This document shows, one piece after another, positions 23,636 to 33,875 of a DNA stretch of 64,000 nucleotides (position 1 is the stretch's first letter; each line of letters opens with the position of its first letter). Below the pieces are notes generated by a model. The model worked only from the letters and a program-made list of their open reading frames with translations, searched no databases and was not told the origin of the DNA. The DNA lies in sequence record PZ452578.1. One strand, written 5' to 3'. The position numbers and the translations under genes are program-made. Source of the stretch: a phage.

Positions 23636-23667
23636 CTACTATAACACAACATAAGGGACTTGTAAAC
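23636..23667 (-). promoter_or_regulatory. Sigma70-like early promoter (-35 TTTACA, 17 bp spacer, -10 TATAGT)
   Basis: Read on the minus strand as GTTTACA...TATAGT; promoter plus leader nearly identical to the copy at 39134-39191. Confidence 0.7.
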
Positions 23668-25724
23668 TACATTTTGAACTTTTTAGACATTCCGTTGATG
23701 TTAACCAAAGAAGCCAAGATTTGAGAAACTTCGTTTTCCTCTTCTTTTGATTCTTCTACAAGAAATTGATTAAATCCAGCCATTGGACGAACTTCACCAG
23801 TTTCCATTAAATGGTCGCCATCATATACCGATTCCTCTAATTGTTCAGAAGGAGGAACGATTGTACCTTCGATTAGATACTTGTTATAAGCAGTTTCTTT
23901 CATAAAGTACGTACTTACTTTATTAATCTTCAGTAAAATTCCACGCGGTAGAATAACTTCAGCTTCTGATGGAAATCCTGATAAATGACCTGGAACGATA
24001 ACTTTGATTCGCTCAGCTCCTTTAATTACCATACCCACGCTAGTTTCAGCATCTTCATTAGCATATGTAGAATGACTACCCATATGCATCAAATCTTCTG
24101 CGTCAACTGAACCTTCTCCTTCACCAGAAAATACTGCGCCGGAATCATCTAGAGCCATATAGTTTTTACCATGCTCACCGAAGATATTTGGTTTAAGAGA
24201 TGTGGATACGAAGTTCTTGAAATAGAACATTTTGTTTTCAATGTTATGACGCAAAGTTTTAAAGGTAACTTCTTGTCCGCGATAAAGCGTAGTTCCTGGA
24301 GGAAGAACTGAACCTTTAGCGAATGCAGAATCCAACGTCTCGATGTTCTTAATAGCTCGTTCCATATATTCTTCACGGGTAGAATCTGGTTTACCCAAAA
24401 GGAACGAGTTCATTTCAACATATGAATCTGCACAATAATCTTCAATTACATCAGATTCGGCCTGAGTCAGTCCTTTTGGAGTTACTTCAGTGCTTGCGTA
24501 TTCATATGCCTGGGCAGCAGATTCATTAATCAATTTATAAATGCCATTCATTACAAATTGAATAATAGCTGTCTTTTCATCTGGCGTAGCTTTAGAACCT
24601 TTAACCAAATCATTGATAATTTTCTTAATAACATCAAAGCTATTAGAAATATTAATATCAGCAAGATCGCTTAAAATTTTATCAGTTTTATAATCAAAGA
24701 ATTCTTTATTCTTTAAATATTCTTGAGAACCTTGATATGTTATATCGCTCTGCAACTTGATAGATGGATCACGTAAACGTGCATGGGCCAATGCAATATG
24801 ATTTCGGAAGTTTTCTAGTTCATAATCGCTAGATTTAAAACGAGAAGCACTCCTCATACCACCGATAGCTCCTTTGCTAAAGTTTGAACCAATCTGGATA
24901 ACCCCGGAGTTCATCGGACCTTCTGCTTTATATACCGGAACTTTAGATTCAAACTCTTGATATTTCTTAGCAGCGAAGCTATCACCCTGAAGTGAAGCAT
25001 CAACAGTAGAATATTGAGCTTGTGCTGCTAATCGACGACTAATTTTAGTTTTCTGAATAACAGCTTGGTCAGTACGTTTATCATTTTCTAAAGCAATAGA
25101 AGCAGCAACAGCAACAGCTTTAGGAACAGCATTACCTGTTTTAACATCTACATAAACATCACCAACCTTTGATTCAACTTTTGTGAATAACTCAGTTGAA
25201 ATAGGAGGTACACCTGGAATGTCTTCTAAATTGGCATTTTTACGGTAAACCATAATATATGCATACTTTTTATCATAGTCCCAGATTTCCTTTAAAAGAA
25301 CATATCGACCTGCTCCTTTAGTACGTACTAAACGGTCAGCAATAACTTGCATTTGACGAGCTGCGCCATTTGTTTTACTTTTTAGTACGCGGAATAAGCA
25401 TGCGTCAATTTTATACTGCTTCATTGTTTGAAGAGCAGTATCAAAAACAGCGTTAATGACGCCAATTGGATTTCCACCCAAGTTTCTAAGCTTAACCAGC
25501 GATAATTTCTCGTTGACACCTATCATTACGATATGCATCATTTTATCGCCTGGCTTAACGTTTTTATTCGTATCACCGCCAGAGGTGTATGTACAAAATC
25601 TAAATCCAGGAAGCACGCTTTCTTCGCCGGCTTGAATAGCAAAAATTTGTGGTATTTTATGCTTAGGATTTAAGTTAACAACCGGCGCCGAAGCGCCGTC
25701 AAATAATTCTGTAATAAGTTCCAT
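23667..25724 (-). CDS. Alt-family ADP-ribosyltransferase, downstream copy
   Basis: 685 aa; N-terminal 230 aa closely matches the adjacent 698 aa paralog; C-terminal half has R (LYRGQ), STS (FVSTSL) and catalytic E (SEAEVILPRG) motifs of R-S-E ARTs. Confidence 0.85.
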   Translation of the reverse strand: MELITELFDGASAPVVNLNPKHKIPQIFAIQAGEESVLPGFRFCTYTSGGDTNKNVKPGDKMMHIVMIGVNEKLSLVKLRNLGGNPIGVINAVFDTALQTMKQYKIDACLFRVLKSKTNGAARQMQVIADRLVRTKGAGRYVLLKEIWDYDKKYAYIMVYRKNANLEDIPGVPPISTELFTKVESKVGDVYVDVKTGNAVPKAVAVAASIALENDKRTDQAVIQKTKISRRLAAQAQYSTVDASLQGDSFAAKKYQEFESKVPVYKAEGPMNSGVIQIGSNFSKGAIGGMRSASRFKSSDYELENFRNHIALAHARLRDPSIKLQSDITYQGSQEYLKNKEFFDYKTDKILSDLADINISNSFDVIKKIINDLVKGSKATPDEKTAIIQFVMNGIYKLINESAAQAYEYASTEVTPKGLTQAESDVIEDYCADSYVEMNSFLLGKPDSTREEYMERAIKNIETLDSAFAKGSVLPPGTTLYRGQEVTFKTLRHNIENKMFYFKNFVSTSLKPNIFGEHGKNYMALDDSGAVFSGEGEGSVDAEDLMHMGSHSTYANEDAETSVGMVIKGAERIKVIVPGHLSGFPSEAEVILPRGILLKINKVSTYFMKETAYNKYLIEGTIVPPSEQLEESVYDGDHLMETGEVRPMAGFNQFLVEESKEEENEVSQILASLVNINGMSKKFKM

Positions 25725-25727
25725 GAT

Positions 25728-27824
25728 TTATCCTTGAACGAACTTGTAAGGTATGTTTGTAATATCTATGCAAGACGCAATAATTCCAAGAGATGATTCT
25801 ACTTTCTGTTTAACATTTGATGAAACAAATGATGCAAAGTCAACTCTGCCTTCTATTTCAATATCACCTGTCATTGCAACTACTTCGCCGGTTTCCATTA
25901 AACGGTCACCGTCATAAATTACCGATTCGGTGAGTTCTTCGGTGGTCATAACTTCAGCTTGAATGAGTTTTGTATTATTAGACGTGGTTCCGTCATTATT
26001 AGAAGCATCAGTTATTTTATTAACTTTGACCATCAATCCGCGCGGCAGAATAACTTCGGCTTCTGTTGCTATTCCGAGACTTCCTGGATATACAACATTA
26101 ACTTTATGAGCTCCATCAATTGCCCATCCTATTTGAACTTTAACGTATTCAGGATTTTCTTTATACGCTCTTATTTCGTTTGGATTAATAGTTATTCCTT
26201 CTTCATTTTTATCAACTGTTAATTCATTGCGAGCTTCTGGTTCTAAAAGACCAATACCAGCATGTGTAATTCCAAAACGTCCAAAAATGATAGGAGTTAA
26301 AGAAGTAGATACAAAATTTCTGAAATAGAACACTTTATTTTTAACTAGTGCTTCGTATATAGGAGCAGTCATACTTTGAGCACGATAAACTGTAATGCCT
26401 TCCGGTATGCGGTCACCATTTTCAAAAGCTGAATCTAAATTATTTATAGCAGATTCAATTTCTTTTTCACTCATTACATCATATCGTTCTGGATTGTAAC
26501 GACCTAAAAGAAGATTATTAATGTCTGTATATCCTGAACCACAATATTCTCTAATGCCGCGCTTTTGTGATGGAGTATATTTAGAACCATCACGGGCAAT
26601 AGTAATATCAATCATTGGACCTGCACCAATTCCAGAAAAGCTATAAATCATTCGTTTGAGGAATTTAGTTTTTGCTGCATTCCAGGCATTTTTAGTTATT
26701 TCTCCCCAGACTTCATCTGGTTGCCCTTTACGAGTTTTATTATGTTTATCAAGCCAATTATCTTTATATTCTTCAAAGAATTTATTAACAGCTGCTGCGT
26801 ATTTCTCTAAACATTTTATTGAAGTAGTTGGCTCATTTTTTATCGCATTGAGAATTACATCTTTAATTTTTTCAGAAACTTCATCAACCTCACTTTTTGA
26901 AAAGAATTTATAGTCATAGTGAAGTTCATTCGCAGTTCCTTCGGCAATAATTTTTGCTGCCTTAGTTTTAGAAGCTAATGAATTAATTCCAAGCTTCATT
27001 TCTTCTGCTTCGGGAATTAAAGGAGCGGTAGCAGGTTTATTGAAATTAGCTGCGGTAGATTCATACTTCTGGAATAATTCACTTTCAAATCTAGAAGATT
27101 CCAATGATTGACTTTGCGCAATTGCTCTACGGGAAATTTTAACTTTAACGATTACAGCTTGGTCAGAACGTTTATCATTTTCTTGCGCAATAGATGCTGC
27201 AATTGCCTCATTTTTAGTTACTTGGGCTCCAGTATCTTTATTGATATAAACATCACCGACCTTCGATTCAACTTTAGTAAAGAGCTCGGTACTAATTTCC
27301 GGAACTCCTGGAATGTCTTCTAGTGATACATTTTTACGATGTATAAGAATATATGCATACTTTTTATCATAATCCCAGAGTTCCTTAAGAAGGACGTATC
27401 TGCCACCTGAACGACTACGGATAAGTCTATCAGCAATAACTTGAATTTGTCGAGCTTGGCCAGCAGTTTTAGACTTAAGAATACGAAGCATACAAGCATC
27501 AATTTTATACTGACGCATCGTTTGCATTGCAACAGTAAAAACTGAATTGATATAATTAATTGGGCTTGGACCAAGACCTTTTAATTTAGCAATTGAACCT
27601 TTAGCAGTTAATGTAAAAGGAACAATATGCATCATTTTATCGCCCATCTTTAAATCGCGATTAGTATCACCTCCAGATGTATAGGTACATAAACGAAAGC
27701 CTGGTTGTTCAATTGCATCATCAACATGAACTGAAAAAATTTGCGGTATTTTCTTCTTTGGATTTAAGTTTGTAATCGGAAGAGTAGTATCTTCGTCAAA
27801 TAATTCTGTAATAAGTTCCATCAT
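25728..27824 (-). CDS. alt: Alt ADP-ribosyltransferase, upstream copy
   Basis: 698 aa; N-terminus MMELITELFDEDTTLPITNLNPKK; motifs VYRAQ, FVSTSL, TEAEVILPRG; 3 nt from the downstream paralog. Confidence 0.88.
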   Translation of the reverse strand: MMELITELFDEDTTLPITNLNPKKKIPQIFSVHVDDAIEQPGFRLCTYTSGGDTNRDLKMGDKMMHIVPFTLTAKGSIAKLKGLGPSPINYINSVFTVAMQTMRQYKIDACMLRILKSKTAGQARQIQVIADRLIRSRSGGRYVLLKELWDYDKKYAYILIHRKNVSLEDIPGVPEISTELFTKVESKVGDVYINKDTGAQVTKNEAIAASIAQENDKRSDQAVIVKVKISRRAIAQSQSLESSRFESELFQKYESTAANFNKPATAPLIPEAEEMKLGINSLASKTKAAKIIAEGTANELHYDYKFFSKSEVDEVSEKIKDVILNAIKNEPTTSIKCLEKYAAAVNKFFEEYKDNWLDKHNKTRKGQPDEVWGEITKNAWNAAKTKFLKRMIYSFSGIGAGPMIDITIARDGSKYTPSQKRGIREYCGSGYTDINNLLLGRYNPERYDVMSEKEIESAINNLDSAFENGDRIPEGITVYRAQSMTAPIYEALVKNKVFYFRNFVSTSLTPIIFGRFGITHAGIGLLEPEARNELTVDKNEEGITINPNEIRAYKENPEYVKVQIGWAIDGAHKVNVVYPGSLGIATEAEVILPRGLMVKVNKITDASNNDGTTSNNTKLIQAEVMTTEELTESVIYDGDRLMETGEVVAMTGDIEIEGRVDFASFVSSNVKQKVESSLGIIASCIDITNIPYKFVQG

Positions 27825-27845
27825 AGCCTCTCTAGTGTTTATTCT

Positions 27846-27853
27846 ATTTATAA
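27846..27853 (-). promoter_or_regulatory. T4-type late promoter TATAAATA upstream of alt
   Basis: Minus strand reads TTTTATAAATAGAATAAACACTAGAGAGGCT ATG; sits just after a terminator hairpin. Confidence 0.6.
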
Positions 27854-27858
27854 AATTA

Positions 27859-27878
27859 AAGGCCCGAAGGCCTTTAAT
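27859..27878 (-). terminator. Terminator hairpin after the 62 aa ORF / gene 30 operon
   Basis: AAAGGCC-CGAA-GGCCTTT palindromic hairpin directly 3' of the stop at 27874, followed by T-rich sequence. Confidence 0.7.
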
Positions 27879-28062
27879 AATCTAGTGGTAAGAGAGTACG
27901 GTATATTTCAAACTTTGGACCTTTTTCATAGGCATCAAATGTTTCTGTGAATTTATTATAAGCATATGCATCTACAAATTCGAGAATGACTTGTGATACA
28001 GAAGTAGAAACATCTCCACCTTCTTTTTGAGCAATGACAATTGTTTCTAAGTAAGCTTTCAT
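27874..28062 (-). CDS. Hypothetical protein
   Basis: 62 aa ORF whose start overlaps the gene 30 stop. Confidence 0.65.
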   Translation of the reverse strand: MKAYLETIVIAQKEGGDVSTSVSQVILEFVDAYAYNKFTETFDAYEKGPKFEIYRTLLPLDY

Positions 28063-29522
28063 AAACCAGTTACCTCATGAAAATCACCAAATACATCCTC
28101 GAATGTATTAGCTTTAGTTTTATCTTCACGTAAACGAATCGCAATCGGAAGAAATAATTTAACGTAATCAGTGCGGCCATCAGATTTTAACCAACCGTTG
28201 CATTCGCACTCTAGAATTTTTCCAATATAATAATTTTGGTTTTCCATAATGCGAGTACGGTCAAGTTCATGCGATTTTACACCGGCTTTATCTTTTAAGC
28301 CTGAACCAGCATTTACCTTAATTTTTCCACACTCTGATTCAAGAATAAATCCACCCGCTTTAGTAGGGTCTTTACGGTGAGGATAAATTCCTACAATTTT
28401 TAAATCAACATCAATTACTTCTTTAAATTTATAGAGATTTTTTGAACGAGCATTTTCCCACAATCCATCGGTATTTTTGAGAATAATACCTTCAAGACCT
28501 TGGTCAATATACTTTTTATAAATTACCTTAGCTTCATCTAGGTTATTTACTACCTGGTTTTCAATTAAAATTACTTTATCATAACCTGATGTCATTTGTT
28601 CTAGTTTAGAAAAACGTACATCATATTTCAAACGAAATGCAGGAAGACCGTATATTTCTACCAACGGGACATAATCCCAGACCTGAAACTTCATGCATTG
28701 AGCTTCTTTTTCAGAAATGGTTCCCTTTAAAGATTTATTGGCGATGCCATTAGATGCAGTACGTGATTCAGCTACTTCGGCGAATTCTTTAGCTTTACTA
28801 ATTTCAGGATAAGCATCAAAAAGAAAATCTAGTCCTTCTGGTTCCTTTTCAACTTGCTCATGGTATACCAATTCGCCATCAATTAACACACCTTCTGGAT
28901 GAATCTGGCGGGCTTCAGCGGTCATTTTAATTAACTCTTCCTTAAGAAGATCTAATCCTAGATATTCATTACCAGCTCGTGATAAAAGACGAACATCATC
29001 TAATTCATCACCTCTAACTTCAGCAAAACACCGAGCTCCATCAGCTTTTAACTGGGCAAAGGCTGGAAATTTGATATTCTTATTAATGCCTTTTTCATCA
29101 TAAGAACTTGCAAGCATTTGAGGTTGTTCAGGAATTAAACCTGGCCAAACTTTGTTCGCAATAGATACTGAAGCACCGCATTCAAGGTCTCGCATCATCA
29201 CCCGACGCAAAACTTCAACATCATCTTTTTTACCGTCAGTAATATATCCAGTTAATTCCTCAATTGCCGCATTTCCAGTCAATTTCCGAGTAGCTAACGT
29301 GAATTCAATGAAGTCGAGCATATCGGTAAGAGTCAACATTCCAAAACTCTGGGTAGCAATACCCGGTTTAGGCCATTTCTTGATATAATACTGTAACCCA
29401 CGAGAATAAGTCAGACGATATACTCGTTTAAGCAATTCATTATCTTTATTCTTTTCAAGAATTGCTTGCTTCTGCTTAGTTGAACCAATAGATGCTATTT
29501 CGTTCAGAATTTTAAGAATCAT
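28059..29522 (-). CDS. 30: ATP-dependent DNA ligase gp30
   Basis: 487 aa, T4 DNA ligase length; active-site KADGAR motif present. Confidence 0.95.
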   Translation of the reverse strand: MILKILNEIASIGSTKQKQAILEKNKDNELLKRVYRLTYSRGLQYYIKKWPKPGIATQSFGMLTLTDMLDFIEFTLATRKLTGNAAIEELTGYITDGKKDDVEVLRRVMMRDLECGASVSIANKVWPGLIPEQPQMLASSYDEKGINKNIKFPAFAQLKADGARCFAEVRGDELDDVRLLSRAGNEYLGLDLLKEELIKMTAEARQIHPEGVLIDGELVYHEQVEKEPEGLDFLFDAYPEISKAKEFAEVAESRTASNGIANKSLKGTISEKEAQCMKFQVWDYVPLVEIYGLPAFRLKYDVRFSKLEQMTSGYDKVILIENQVVNNLDEAKVIYKKYIDQGLEGIILKNTDGLWENARSKNLYKFKEVIDVDLKIVGIYPHRKDPTKAGGFILESECGKIKVNAGSGLKDKAGVKSHELDRTRIMENQNYYIGKILECECNGWLKSDGRTDYVKLFLPIAIRLREDKTKANTFEDVFGDFHEVTGL

Positions 29523-29788
29523 TGTTCATCCTTTAGAGTTTGGTTTACAGCTCTATTATAAATCAATTCATCATTAAGCTCAGTCAAAGACCTGTGGTAC
29601 GTGGTTCTAACTTTATTTCCTTGCATCCAGTGCTTGACGTAAATGAAACCTTGCTCTACACATTTTTTAAAAATTCGTTCGTCTTTTTGAGCTCGGAATT
29701 CTGGATTGCATCTAAAAAATTGATTTACGTGACCGTAATCACGTGTAGTATTACCTTCATTTTCATAAATAGTATGAACAACAAACAT
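29519..29788 (-). CDS. Hypothetical protein (T4 30.1 position)
   Basis: 89 aa ORF overlapping the gene 30 start. Confidence 0.7.
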   Translation of the reverse strand: MFVVHTIYENEGNTTRDYGHVNQFFRCNPEFRAQKDERIFKKCVEQGFIYVKHWMQGNKVRTTYHRSLTELNDELIYNRAVNQTLKDEQ

Positions 29789-30627
29789 TAGAATGCTCCT
29801 TGGAAAATATTATCACCACTAGTAGGTCTATTATACAAATACTCTATGCCACCAGGTTTAATATAGTTCCATGTCTGAAACGGATGTGTCTGATATGGAT
29901 GATATAGATGATTATAAGGATTAAATCCAGGAGTTCTCCAGGTAGTGTTCCAAGGAAAAGAATCGTTTTTGATCATCTTCTCAATTACATCTTTTATAAC
30001 TTTTTCACTATCAAAACTTTCTTTATTTTCCTTCGATGGAAAAAGCTTATTCTCTACATCATTCCATGTATAAACTCGCTGTGCAGTTTTTGGAATACTG
30101 TCACGCTCCCCTCGAGCCATCCAATAAACAGGAACATTTAATATTTCACTCGCGTGATCGCAGTGGTGAGCGAGATCGTCAATATAACAAATTACGTTAT
30201 ATTTCTCTTTTGCCTTTTTGAACAACTCTTCTTTTGAAGAATCATGACCACACATCAATACTTCTGAGAAGGCACCAGGAAAAAGAGCATTCAAATTAAA
30301 TTGACGATTCAGCAGAGCGTCAATAGAATCACCCAATGCTGTAAGAGCTACAAAATTATAATCTTCTTTTAATTTGTTAATTACACACAGGGCATCTTTA
30401 TATGGAGACAAGTAACGAATAAAATCTGAACGATTGTATTTTTCAATTAACTTGACGCCAAGTTCTTCATCACAATTAAAGAGTTTACCAGGAGAAATAA
30501 ATTTCTCATCTTGGATCATTTTTAAAATATGTTCTAACGGAAGATTATATTTCTGAGCAAAATAAGGAAGGCCTGATTGCCAGCTTAAACATACTCCATC
30601 AATATCAGTTAAAATAGTAGGCTTCAT
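29788..30627 (-). CDS. Putative HAD-superfamily hydrolase (T4 30.2 position)
   Basis: 279 aa; N-terminal ILTDIDGV fits HAD motif I (DxDx[TV]); later CYIDD could be the acidic motif IV. Confidence 0.65.
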   Translation of the reverse strand: MKPTILTDIDGVCLSWQSGLPYFAQKYNLPLEHILKMIQDEKFISPGKLFNCDEELGVKLIEKYNRSDFIRYLSPYKDALCVINKLKEDYNFVALTALGDSIDALLNRQFNLNALFPGAFSEVLMCGHDSSKEELFKKAKEKYNVICYIDDLAHHCDHASEILNVPVYWMARGERDSIPKTAQRVYTWNDVENKLFPSKENKESFDSEKVIKDVIEKMIKNDSFPWNTTWRTPGFNPYNHLYHPYQTHPFQTWNYIKPGGIEYLYNRPTSGDNIFQGAF

Positions 30628-31088
30628 AGAGAGTCTCTTAATAGGTTTAACACATCAATAAATTCAGCTTCGGTTAGTATTGTATCATCTTTTGTTAGAC
30701 CACTAGCCATGCTGTGCTTCAAAACTTTTCCTTTCGAGGCTTGTAATGCATCACGAAAGCCCTTGTTTTGGATCGCTGCTTCAAAATATGCATTTGTGTA
30801 TAATTCTTTCCACGCCGGGGAGTATCTTGAAAACGGAACTCCAAGCCAGAAGAGGGTCCCACGGTCCTGAGCTCTAGCATAAGACCTTCCAGCTTGTTGA
30901 GCGGCAAGCCCGGATAACCCAAATATACGACGTTGTTGTTCAACATTTTTCACCTTACATCCTTGGAGGAATCCTTCGAGACCTCCAAATTGAATGCCAT
31001 CCATAACGAAAGGCCATTGGGCGAAATTACTTAATGCACATGATGGCCACCTAAAATTGCTTCTAATCTCTAACTCAGACATTTTCAA
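30624..31088 (-). CDS. 30.3: NADAR-like (YbiA/DUF1768-like) protein, 30.3
   Basis: 154 aa; LSNFAQWPFVMDGIQF...EGFLQGCKV resembles the remembered YbiA core FSNFAAWP...DG...EHYFQAQKF; recalled from memory. Confidence 0.55.
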   Translation of the reverse strand: MKMSELEIRSNFRWPSCALSNFAQWPFVMDGIQFGGLEGFLQGCKVKNVEQQRRIFGLSGLAAQQAGRSYARAQDRGTLFWLGVPFSRYSPAWKELYTNAYFEAAIQNKGFRDALQASKGKVLKHSMASGLTKDDTILTEAEFIDVLNLLRDSL

Positions 31089-31281
31089 TACTTATAATTT
31101 CAACATCAGCCCAATGACCATAGCAAGGAAGACGAAATTCAACTGGCCAGTTAGGGTCCTTTTCTAATATAATAGACTCAACTTGTGGTTCTTCATGTTC
31201 ATCAGTATATGGATTTTTATCTGTTACTTTATATGTTACCTTAATGTACTGAATTCCAAAAATCTTATTAATTATATTCAT
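31075..31281 (-). CDS. Hypothetical small protein
   Basis: 68 aa ORF in the tightly packed 30.x cluster. Confidence 0.6.
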   Translation of the reverse strand: MNIINKIFGIQYIKVTYKVTDKNPYTDEHEEPQVESIILEKDPNWPVEFRLPCYGHWADVEIISIENV

Positions 31282-31475
31282 ATTAATTCCTTTAATCCAT
31301 AGATAGGAGATAATTCATCGCCCATATGAAGGTCTTCATTTCCATCTACCCAAGAAACAATATAAGCCTCTTTTACTTGAACATCTCCCAATTTAAATGC
31401 GGGTAAAACCTTAGAAATTAATCCAGGTATACCAACTCCCTTTAATTCAACGGTTTGACCTAAAAAGAATTTCAT
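31278..31475 (-). CDS. Hypothetical small protein
   Basis: 65 aa ORF with overlapping stop/start on both sides. Confidence 0.6.
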   Translation of the reverse strand: MKFFLGQTVELKGVGIPGLISKVLPAFKLGDVQVKEAYIVSWVDGNEDLHMGDELSPIYGLKELI

Positions 31476-31813
31476 TAGAACCTCATCTGAAACCCATGTG
31501 ATTTAACATTACCGCCATTAATATCAGAACTATTAATTTCGCGTGCAATTGAGGGATCAATGTCAATTTCGCCATTAAGTTTAATGATAGACAAAGTATC
31601 ACGCCCATTTACAGTGCGAAACTCTAAAGGACAAACCACATCAACGTAGTTTTTAATCGATTCACTGGTAGGTTGCAAATGAGCAGGAAGGTCTTTGGAC
31701 GCCTTTGAGAAAACCACTTCACAGAAATTTTTACGGGTATCAAAATAAGTAGTCATAAACATAGTATTTTCCTCAGTAAGGGGCCGAAGCCCCTCATTTA
31801 TTTTAAATATCAA
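31475..31813 (-). CDS. Hypothetical protein
   Basis: 112 aa ORF in the 30.x cluster. Confidence 0.65.
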   Translation of the reverse strand: MIFKINEGLRPLTEENTMFMTTYFDTRKNFCEVVFSKASKDLPAHLQPTSESIKNYVDVVCPLEFRTVNGRDTLSIIKLNGEIDIDPSIAREINSSDINGGNVKSHGFQMRF

Positions 31814-32180
31814 ATTCGTTAAGAACTACATCAAAGATTGCTTCAAGATGCTCAGGTTTAGCTCTGTTACTCAGAATATGACGAATCCAAGTTTTAACCA
31901 AAAGCTTGCGATTATCACCATTCCAGCAAGGATGAGTCCCTAAATCACGTTGACGGAAATCATCATCCAGAGCGATTTTGAAGTTGGAACCTTCCATTGT
32001 GATTGAAACCGTGATACCGTTTTCAAATCGCATATAAACGTAGTTAGGAGTCATATACTGTTCAATTTCGCATACTGATCCATTTTGATGTTTCCAAAGG
32101 CAAATAGTATCAATAGAACCTGCAATACCATTAGAAACATATTTACGTTCAAAGTTGATGTAGTTCATTTTATTCTCCAA
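31803..32180 (-). CDS. Hypothetical protein
   Basis: 125 aa ORF in the 30.x cluster. Confidence 0.65.
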   Translation of the reverse strand: MENKMNYINFERKYVSNGIAGSIDTICLWKHQNGSVCEIEQYMTPNYVYMRFENGITVSITMEGSNFKIALDDDFRQRDLGTHPCWNGDNRKLLVKTWIRHILSNRAKPEHLEAIFDVVLNEFDI

Positions 32181-32235
32181 GATGTTTAATTGCGGTACAG
32201 GTATATAATATCATATCCTGTACCAAAGTAAACAA

Positions 32236-32568
32236 TTATTTTACTACTTTCCAATGCTGCATGTCAAGTTTACCAACTTTTTTCATCTTCTCAATTAAGC
32301 GTTCTGCACGTTGACGAGCTGTAACATAATGCCATTCGCCTAATTCATTTTGTTCAATTTTTCCAACGATTACTGTATTCAATTCATAAATCCAACCAGT
32401 AAAGAAATTATGAACTTGAATTGTAAAGGTGAAATCTGTTCCCATACCTTCTGTTGTTTCTACTTCAATAATATCACCTTCAACTGCCATTAAGAACCAC
32501 ATAGTTTCATTATATTTACCATTGAAGCATTTAGTTTTAACTGCAGCGTTCAGATTAATCGTTTTCAT
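32236..32568 (-). CDS. Hypothetical protein
   Basis: 110 aa ORF with a GGAGAA RBS, downstream of an early promoter. Confidence 0.7.
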   Translation of the reverse strand: MKTINLNAAVKTKCFNGKYNETMWFLMAVEGDIIEVETTEGMGTDFTFTIQVHNFFTGWIYELNTVIVGKIEQNELGEWHYVTARQRAERLIEKMKKVGKLDMQHWKVVK

Positions 32569-32595
32569 TTTATTCTCCTTTGTTTGTGTAAGATA

Positions 32596-32624
32596 ATACT
32601 ATCACAAAGGAACCATACTGTAAA
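32596..32624 (-). promoter_or_regulatory. Sigma70-like early promoter (-35 TTTACA, 17 bp, -10 TAGTAT)
   Basis: Minus strand GTTTACAGTATGGTTCCTTTGTGATAGTAT upstream of the 110 aa ORF. Confidence 0.65.
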
Positions 32625-32654
32625 CAACTTTATGCAATCTTTGGAAAATAAAAA

Positions 32655-32678
32655 AGGACTCCCGAAGGAGTCCTCAAC
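32655..32678 (-). terminator. Rho-independent terminator after 30.9
   Basis: AGGACTCC-TTCG-GGAGTCCT hairpin followed by TTTTTATTTT on the minus strand. Confidence 0.8.
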
Positions 32679-32855
32679 TTATGCTTTCTGCTTACCAAAA
32701 CGAGAAGCATCATCTCGAAGAACCGCACGTGCTCGACGCATGATCTTCTCAACAGTTTGATTGATACGAGAGTTCGACCCACGCTTGTAGCCAGCGCGTT
32801 TAGAATCACCAACTTTCTTTTCAACTGCTTTCTTTGCTTTAACTTGTTTTGCCAT
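32679..32855 (-). CDS. 30.9: Small basic protein 30.9
   Basis: ORF track gives 72 aa; the internal MAKQVKAKKAVEKK start gives a 58 aa Lys/Arg-rich protein. Confidence 0.65.
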   Translation of the reverse strand: MAKQVKAKKAVEKKVGDSKRAGYKRGSNSRINQTVEKIMRRARAVLRDDASRFGKQKA

Positions 32856-33143
32856 TATAAATTCTCTTTTAAATGAAAATGCAGGACTTATTGACATTGC
32901 CTGCGCAAGCCCTCAAGGGGAACATAGGTTTTTGGATATTTAACGACCAGGATAACCATAAACCCGTCATCATACCACCAAGACTTACACAGATAACACT
33001 TTTCTGACGCATGATAGTAACATTCAAGAGGTACACCGTAAAACTGCCGGGGTCTTAAAACTATAATGATTCGCAAATCATTAATCAGACAGTTCGACGG
33101 CTCCTCGATTTAGCTCACACTAAGGCAGTGAATCTCCAATAAA

Positions 33144-33392
33144 TTACTTCAATGTTACCACAAAGTGACGAACTGCTTTTCGCGCAGCAGAAGCCAAAGG
33201 CTTAGCATATTTAAGTTCATCTTTTTCCTGAAGCTCAGCAGCTAGTGCAGTTTGAGCAGGATTCAGATGTTTGAAATAACGCAGGATTTCAAGAGCTTCG
33301 GCTTCAACATCAATAGATGCGCCATAGTTTTCGTGACCATTATTCCATGCGTTTCGTTGCAGTTCAAGAGCGTGTTGTAATTGTTTAATCAT
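33144..33392 (-). CDS. rIII: rIII lysis-inhibition accessory protein
   Basis: 82 aa, T4 RIII length; position between the 30.x cluster and gene 31. Confidence 0.8.
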   Translation of the reverse strand: MIKQLQHALELQRNAWNNGHENYGASIDVEAEALEILRYFKHLNPAQTALAAELQEKDELKYAKPLASAARKAVRHFVVTLK

Positions 33393-33520
33393 TTAAAAAT
33401 TCTCGTTAGAGATTAAAACTCGGTAGTCACGTTCTTCTGAATTTCATCTTCTTTCGACAGATCTCTCAGTTGTAGACTACCACATAGAATTGTTCGGTTA
33501 ACTTATTATTCCGACACCCA

Positions 33521-33528
33521 ATTCATAT
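33521..33528 (-). promoter_or_regulatory. T4-type late promoter TATAAATA after the gene 31 stop
   Basis: Minus strand GTGATATAAATAATAAT just 3' of the gene 31 stop codon. Confidence 0.45.
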
Positions 33529-33539
33529 TATTATTTATA

Positions 33540-33875
33540 TCACTTATAAAGACACGGAATAGCTTTATAGTGACAAGTAACGAATTTTTGTTTAATTTCT
33601 TTTGGCTGCTTAAGACCCAGAGCTACAAAAGGATGCGGAACATTTCGAATTTGACCAACTGGAAGAGAAGTCAAATCACCAACTTCGCAGAAACCTTCAG
33701 GAACATCAGGACCGACAGAGTGAACTACACACAGTTCAGGAACTTCACCTTGAACACGTTTACCGATAATAAGTCCTGATTCTGTAACTTCTTCATCACC
33801 GGCTTGTGCAGGTTCAGAAACTAAAATAACATATTCACCGACAGCACGAATTGGTAGCTGTTGTACTTCAGACAT
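33540..33875 (-). CDS. 31: Co-chaperonin for GroEL, gp31
   Basis: 111 aa, T4 gp31 length. Confidence 0.88.

Follow-up and report, generated by a model that had tools for sequence, protein, structure and literature searches.

Proteins of the phage gp30.3 group were recognised as a His-variant of NADAR in the original bioinformatic description of the family in 2012 (cited through PMC11125620 and PMC11543638). The residue on the last strand of the domain differs between subgroups, being Glu in the YbiA subfamily, Asp in the NADARs linked to DarT1 and His in the phage gp30.3 NADARs, for which this histidine is the hallmark (PMC11125620, PMC11543638). T4 gp30.3 was found in vitro in 2024 to hydrolyse guanine-linked, but not thymine-linked, ADP-ribose on DNA, and it failed to relieve DarT1 toxicity in E. 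coli cells that were not infected (PMC11125620). The methods of that paper give the T4 gp30.3 construct as 'residues 1-208', as against the 152 aa of T4 gp30.3 and of the ORF analysed here; the construct may include a tag or originate from another phage, which could bear on the negative in vivo result of that paper.

Resistance of T2 and T4 to DarTG1 was subsequently mapped to gene 30.3 by means of RB69 chimeras, and the gene was renamed adfN (Nat Commun 2025, PMC11825919). In that study, T4 and T2 carrying adfN deletions formed no plaques on DarTG1 hosts, AdfN supplied ectopically rescued RB69, and purified AdfN, but not the E36A mutant, stripped ADP-ribose from DarT1-modified DNA; no interaction between AdfN and DarT1 was seen in a two-hybrid assay, and DarTG2 was not countered (PMC11825919). 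The accessible portion of the HIDEN-SEQ preprint, a transposon-sequencing study, reports that insertions in 30.3 were lost on DarTG1 hosts and that adfN deletion was non-essential on K-12 without DarTG1 (10.1101/2025.11.20.689424). T4 AdfN protected T5 and Bas25 only weakly, and its full activity is restricted to T-even infection, independently of DNA hydroxymethylation and glucosylation; because of this restriction, an additional T-even factor, cofactor or context has been suggested in the literature.

The window analysed here, the whole 64,000-nucleotide stretch of phage DNA from record PZ452578.1, is a segment of a T4-like (Tequatrovirus) genome. The 1.8 kb around adfN is present in 700 phage records, nearly all of them Tequatrovirus-like (best match, 97.7%), and the gene order in the window is 54, alt.-3, alt paralog, alt, alt.1, ligase 30, 30.1, 30.2, 30.3 and 30.4, followed further on by rIII, 31 and cd. 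The features of the adfN region are as follows:

23667..25724, minus strand: alt paralog, ADP-ribosyltransferase of 685 aa (PF03496)
25728..27824, minus strand: alt, the T4 Alt ortholog, ADP-ribosyltransferase of 698 aa (PF03496)
28059..29522: DNA ligase (gene 30)
29788..30627, minus strand: gene 30.2, predicted HAD fold, its ATG overlapping the adfN stop (ATGA)
30624..30627, minus strand: ATGA overlap of the adfN stop TGA (30626..30624) and the gene 30.2 ATG (30627..30625), from the sequence and ORF coordinates
30624..31082, minus strand: adfN (T4 gene 30.3) CDS, 152 aa plus stop, from the T4 annotation, 151/152 identity and PF08010 at E 2.3e-70
30630..30671, minus strand: C-terminal helix, residues 138-151, intact and of the same length as in T4 (AF2 model)
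30714..30716, minus strand: H123 codon CAC, on the last strand (sequence; strand 120-123 in the AF2 model)
30954..30956, minus strand: K43 codon AAG, second conserved active-site residue (sequence; published K43A mutant)
30975..30977, minus strand: E36 codon GAA, catalytic glutamate (sequence; published E36A mutant)

The original prediction had called a 154-aa product at 30624-31088, which corresponds to the minus-strand ORF 30624..31088 as read from TTG in the ORF list; the string LSNFAQWPFVMDGIQFGGLEGFLQGCKV is part of the product that this ORF encodes. The ORF is real, far beyond chance, as its product matched the PF08010 (Phage_30_3) profile over its full length (positions 1-138 of 138; 235 bits, where the cut-off is 36; E 2.3e-70) and phrog_652 at 1.3e-51. 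The start, on the other hand, did not hold, and the true adfN CDS is 30624..31082, encoding 152 aa. An ATG lies at 31082..31080, six bases downstream of the TTG at 31088 on the minus strand, where it overlaps the TGA stop of the upstream gene 30.4 (31075..31281). This ATG was taken as the start because it is the equivalent of the T4 annotation, in which gene 30.3 occupies 128307..128765 (459 nt / 152 aa) and begins MSELE, and because the published E36/K43 numbering fits that start only; the TTG would add two residues that fall outside the T4 annotation of gene 30.3. The 8-nt overlap of gene 30.4 and adfN (31075..31082), together with that of adfN and gene 30.2, suggests that these genes may be translationally coupled within one early-gene transcript. 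A promoter and terminator scan of 27800..33600 remained at shuffle level (22 promoters vs 21.1 expected and 4 terminators vs 2.9 expected).

Read from the ATG, the product was identical to T4 gp30.3 (NP_049816) at 151 of 152 positions and equal to it in length. The sole difference, M125 here for I125 in T4, is a conservative substitution that we infer to be neutral. Judged by its sequence and gene position, the product is the ortholog of T4 gp30.3 and a member of the Phage_30_3/AdfN family.

A NADAR/YbiA-like fold had been proposed for this product from the letters alone, and the AF2 model, built on ten family members (mean pLDDT 84.4, pTM 0.82), points to the same fold. Foldseek against the PDB placed three NADARs at the top, namely E. 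coli YbiA (2b3w; E 3.5e-4, TM 0.63), the Geobacter lovleyi NADAR (8bat) and the Phytophthora (P. nicotianae) NADAR with ADP-ribose (8bau), and all remaining matches had E > 3. The only Pfam matches of the single adfN sequence with E up to 10 were PF08010 and a DUF724 match attributable to chance, with no NADAR PF08719; phmmer against the PDB likewise gave no NADAR, only an unrelated ATP pyrophosphatase (E 0.61). The link between AdfN and NADAR is therefore seen only with profiles and structure. An exhaustive HMMER search returned 719 relatives at E <= 0.001, 78 of which were used as the distant-homolog profile. This profile matched YbiA in an hmmsearch of the PDB (E 0.0015) and was aligned to it by hhalign with 95.2% probability (E 2.9e-8, 135 columns) and with the SNFA...E..Q..K motif in register. 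PF08010 was matched by 78/78 of the distant homologs and PF08719 also by 6/78, and at the PHROG level the relation was reciprocal, with YbiA reaching phrog_652 (the AdfN family) at 1.1e-7 and AdfN reaching the YbiA-like phrog_1017 weakly (0.009). On the strength of the model and these profiles, AdfN is predicted to have the NADAR fold and is assigned to the NADAR superfamily (PF08719 / DUF1768). The structural comparison with YbiA that had been proposed as a check thus came out in favour of the fold, and the profile check did so with the 78-homolog profile and the 6/78 homologs but not with the single sequence; to take the lack of a NADAR profile match as refutation would mislead, because the single sequence lacks PF08719 despite the profile and structural link.

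The catalytic residues and the subgroup histidine are in place. E36 was invariant among close relatives and at least 90% conserved in the 78 distant homologs, and the same was observed for H123; K43 was invariant among close relatives. E36 is the counterpart of E43 in the Phytophthora NADAR, a residue in contact with the distal ribose. In the published mutants, E36A AdfN was inactive in vitro with partial rescue in vivo, K43A was impaired, and each of the two mutants kept partial in vivo activity (PMC11825919). The intact C-terminal helix matters in view of the RB69 allele, in which a frameshift removes the last 15 residues and leaves the protein non-functional; a truncation mutant was also made in that work (PMC11825919). 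Among the gp30.3 database entries of T4-like phages, many are fragments (86-126 aa) or are fused to the families of ORF 30.3' or of neighbouring genes (for example, phages SV76, NR1, UGJNEcP4 and RPN226); either adfN alleles with a frameshift, as in RB69, or sequencing errors would thus seem to be not uncommon in nature.

The original prediction had described adfN as lying near two alt genes, a DNA ligase and a putative HAD hydrolase, and this description was accurate: the two full-length alt genes (PF03496) stand in tandem 2.8 kb from adfN, and the ligase is at 28059..29522. The 698-aa Alt shared 70% identity with T4 Alt and is a mosaic, with nearly identical ends and diverged residues ~250-560, while the 685-aa paralog was 41% identical to T4 Alt and sits where T4 keeps the remnants alt.-1 and alt.-2 only. 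The two-alt layout is common (e.g., RB27, RB32, RB33 and T6): 383 records cover 80% or more of the query. To assess synteny, 80 IMG/VR loci with distant AdfN-like genes (36-45% identity), on contigs of about 5-424 kb, most of them >100 kb, were searched by tblastn for 22 genes of the window. Within 8 kb of the distant AdfN-like genes, alt was found at 5/80 loci, ligase at 10/80 and a 30.2 homolog at 10/80, and 30.1 and 30.4 to 30.8 gave tblastn matches at 0/80. When every ORF less than 4 kb from these genes was clustered de novo, no neighbour recurred apart from T4-like synteny. A conserved functional module of AdfN and its neighbours was rejected, since the neighbours rarely recur at the 80 distant loci. 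The presence of alt, ligase and 30.2 beside adfN is ordinary T-even synteny and is no evidence for function, so that the functional support which the original prediction drew from their proximity does not stand.

An overlapping ORF of 75 aa, 30.3', lies out of frame within adfN (30719..30946, minus strand); it is annotated in T4 and belongs to a Pfam family of its own (PF11097 DUF2883, E 2.4e-52). It was matched by tblastn at 0/80 of the distant AdfN-like loci, and its conservation may be a by-product of the overlapping adfN DNA rather than a sign of a real product. Among metagenomic proteins, the gp30.3-type NADAR domain occurs C-terminally fused to ATP-grasp (D-Ala-D-Ala ligase C), LGT and GDSL lipase, and it is also present as tandem proteins of two or three copies; the ATP-grasp, LGT and GDSL-lipase fusions gave no coherent hint of function.

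Gene 30.2, directly downstream, is labelled hypothetical everywhere in annotation, and no significant match was obtained for gp30.2 in Pfam, in a single-sequence PDB search or with a 6-sequence profile against the PDB. Across 37 homologs, however, D8, D10, K132 and D150/D151 were invariant and T96 was near-invariant, corresponding to HAD motifs I-IV. In the AF2 model, residues 1-190 mostly had pLDDT above 90, and a C-terminal tail of roughly 80 residues, missing from many homologs, was disordered and of low confidence. The model matched 106 PDB chains at E <= 0.001; among the 50 of 106 listed, all belonged to the HAD superfamily, and the best target coverage among the matches listed was with 5'(3')-deoxyribonucleotidases (TM up to 0.67). 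The motifs and the model support for gp30.2 a HAD phosphatase fold of the DxD type, with 5'(3')-deoxyribonucleotidases as the closest match, and bear out the putative HAD hydrolase of the original prediction. We consider it improbable that gp30.2 is the suggested T-even factor for AdfN, the two enzymes forming a module for DNA de-ADP-ribosylation and clean-up, given that a 30.2 homolog lies near only 10/80 of the distant AdfN-like genes and that the transposon screen on DarTG1, in the accessible portion of the preprint, names 30.3 only (10.1101/2025.11.20.689424).

With very high confidence, we read the gene as adfN, encoding an orphan-antitoxin-like NADAR that removes guanine ADP-ribose from phage DNA and thereby counters DarTG1. 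The present analysis contributes the identity with T4 AdfN, the predicted NADAR fold, the conserved catalytic residues and the intact C-terminus, and the enzymatic activity and phenotype come from published work on the T4 protein, which is 99% identical. On infection of a DarTG1 cell by a T-even phage, DarT1 would be activated and would ADP-ribosylate guanines of the phage DNA, stalling phage replication; AdfN would then hydrolyse the N-glycosidic bond that joins ADP-ribose to guanine, so that the DNA returns to its unmodified state and replication can proceed. It would do so without binding the toxin and would leave thymine-linked ADP-ribose (DarTG2) untouched. Binding is the point on which this reading differs from one in which AdfN acts as a stoichiometric DarT1-binding inhibitor like AdfA, with the NADAR fold merely as a scaffold. 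The partial in vivo rescue kept by the catalytic mutants (PMC11825919) would fit such an inhibitor, but the negative DarT1 two-hybrid assay and the in vitro removal of ADP-ribose from DNA, abolished by E36A (PMC11825919), leave it a virtually negligible probability.

The two alt genes 2.8 kb away raise the further thought that AdfN acts as an eraser of the marks set by phage-encoded ADP-ribosyltransferases (the two Alt paralogs and ModA/ModB), reversing or limiting self-inflicted ADP-ribosylation or RNAylation, and published work does leave room for a secondary substrate. Alt-type enzymes, however, modify protein arginines, whereas the NADARs tested so far act on guanine-ADP-ribose (PMC11125620, PMC11543638); an alt homolog is within 8 kb at only 5/80 distant AdfN-like loci, and adfN is dispensable on K-12 lacking DarTG1, as stated in the accessible portion of the preprint (10.1101/2025.11.20.689424). 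We therefore regard the eraser function as very unlikely. It appears extremely unlikely that AdfN is no DNA de-ADP-ribosylase but a housekeeping N-glycosidase of the YbiA type, disposing of reactive riboflavin-pathway intermediates in the infected cell: the YbiA subfamily is defined by the last-strand Glu where AdfN and its family carry His, the published phylogeny puts the gp30.3 cluster nearest the DarT1-linked NADARs, and the DarTG1 phenotype and the activity on DNA have been demonstrated (PMC11825919).

Counteraction of DarTG1 by guanine de-ADP-ribosylation is likewise where the original prediction had arrived, with reversal of DarT-type guanine ADP-ribosylation and a counter-defence role as its two functional claims. 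The former has been shown for the 99%-identical T4 protein (PMC11825919, PMC11125620), and the latter is experimental for the same protein (PMC11825919 and, in its accessible portion, preprint 10.1101/2025.11.20.689424). That inference is right in substance, and the checks proposed with it have already been carried out and published. Gene, fold, activity and phenotype were all known from work published between 2012 and 2025, and nothing biologically new is reported here. The locus is nonetheless a textbook-quality illustration of how a lytic phage can enzymatically undo the DNA modification made by a defence system, here with an orphan antitoxin-like enzyme, and it shows that a reader can recognise a genuine remote homology (NADAR) in the raw sequence.

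Among the described systems, T4 AdfN/gp30.3 shares with the present gene the order 30.4 - 30.3 - 30.2 - 30.1 - ligase, the overlapping start and stop and the catalytic residues, and T4 differs from the source phage in having only alt remnants where the latter has a second full-length alt paralog. DarG1, the DarT1-linked, BC4488-type NADAR antitoxin (e.g., of E. coli C7 and G. lovleyi, 8bat), is encoded beside darT1, whereas no darT was found beside adfN, the flanking genes 30.4 and 30.2 giving no DarT match and 30.2 having the predicted HAD fold. DarG1 also has an N-terminal extension and a last-strand Asp, whereas in AdfN the domain begins at about residue 11 of 152 and the corresponding residue is His123; its function in uninfected cells cannot, according to published work, be replaced by T4 AdfN. 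AdfN as a DarG1 antitoxin was thus ruled out by the lack of an adjacent darT, the lack of the N-terminal extension and the His for Asp. E. coli YbiA (2b3w; PF08719) has a last-strand Glu, is a riboflavin-intermediate N-glycosidase in a LexA-controlled operon and is published as giving no protection against DarT1 in vivo; membership of AdfN in the YbiA subfamily was ruled out by His123 in place of that Glu. AdfN-Bas32 and AdfN-Bas60, from T5-like phages and Vequintavirinae, are, like T4-type AdfN, phage NADARs that act against DarTG1 with specificity for guanine-ADP-ribose, but they fall into other NADAR clades, result from independent acquisition and are active without the T-even context, in uninfected cells as well.
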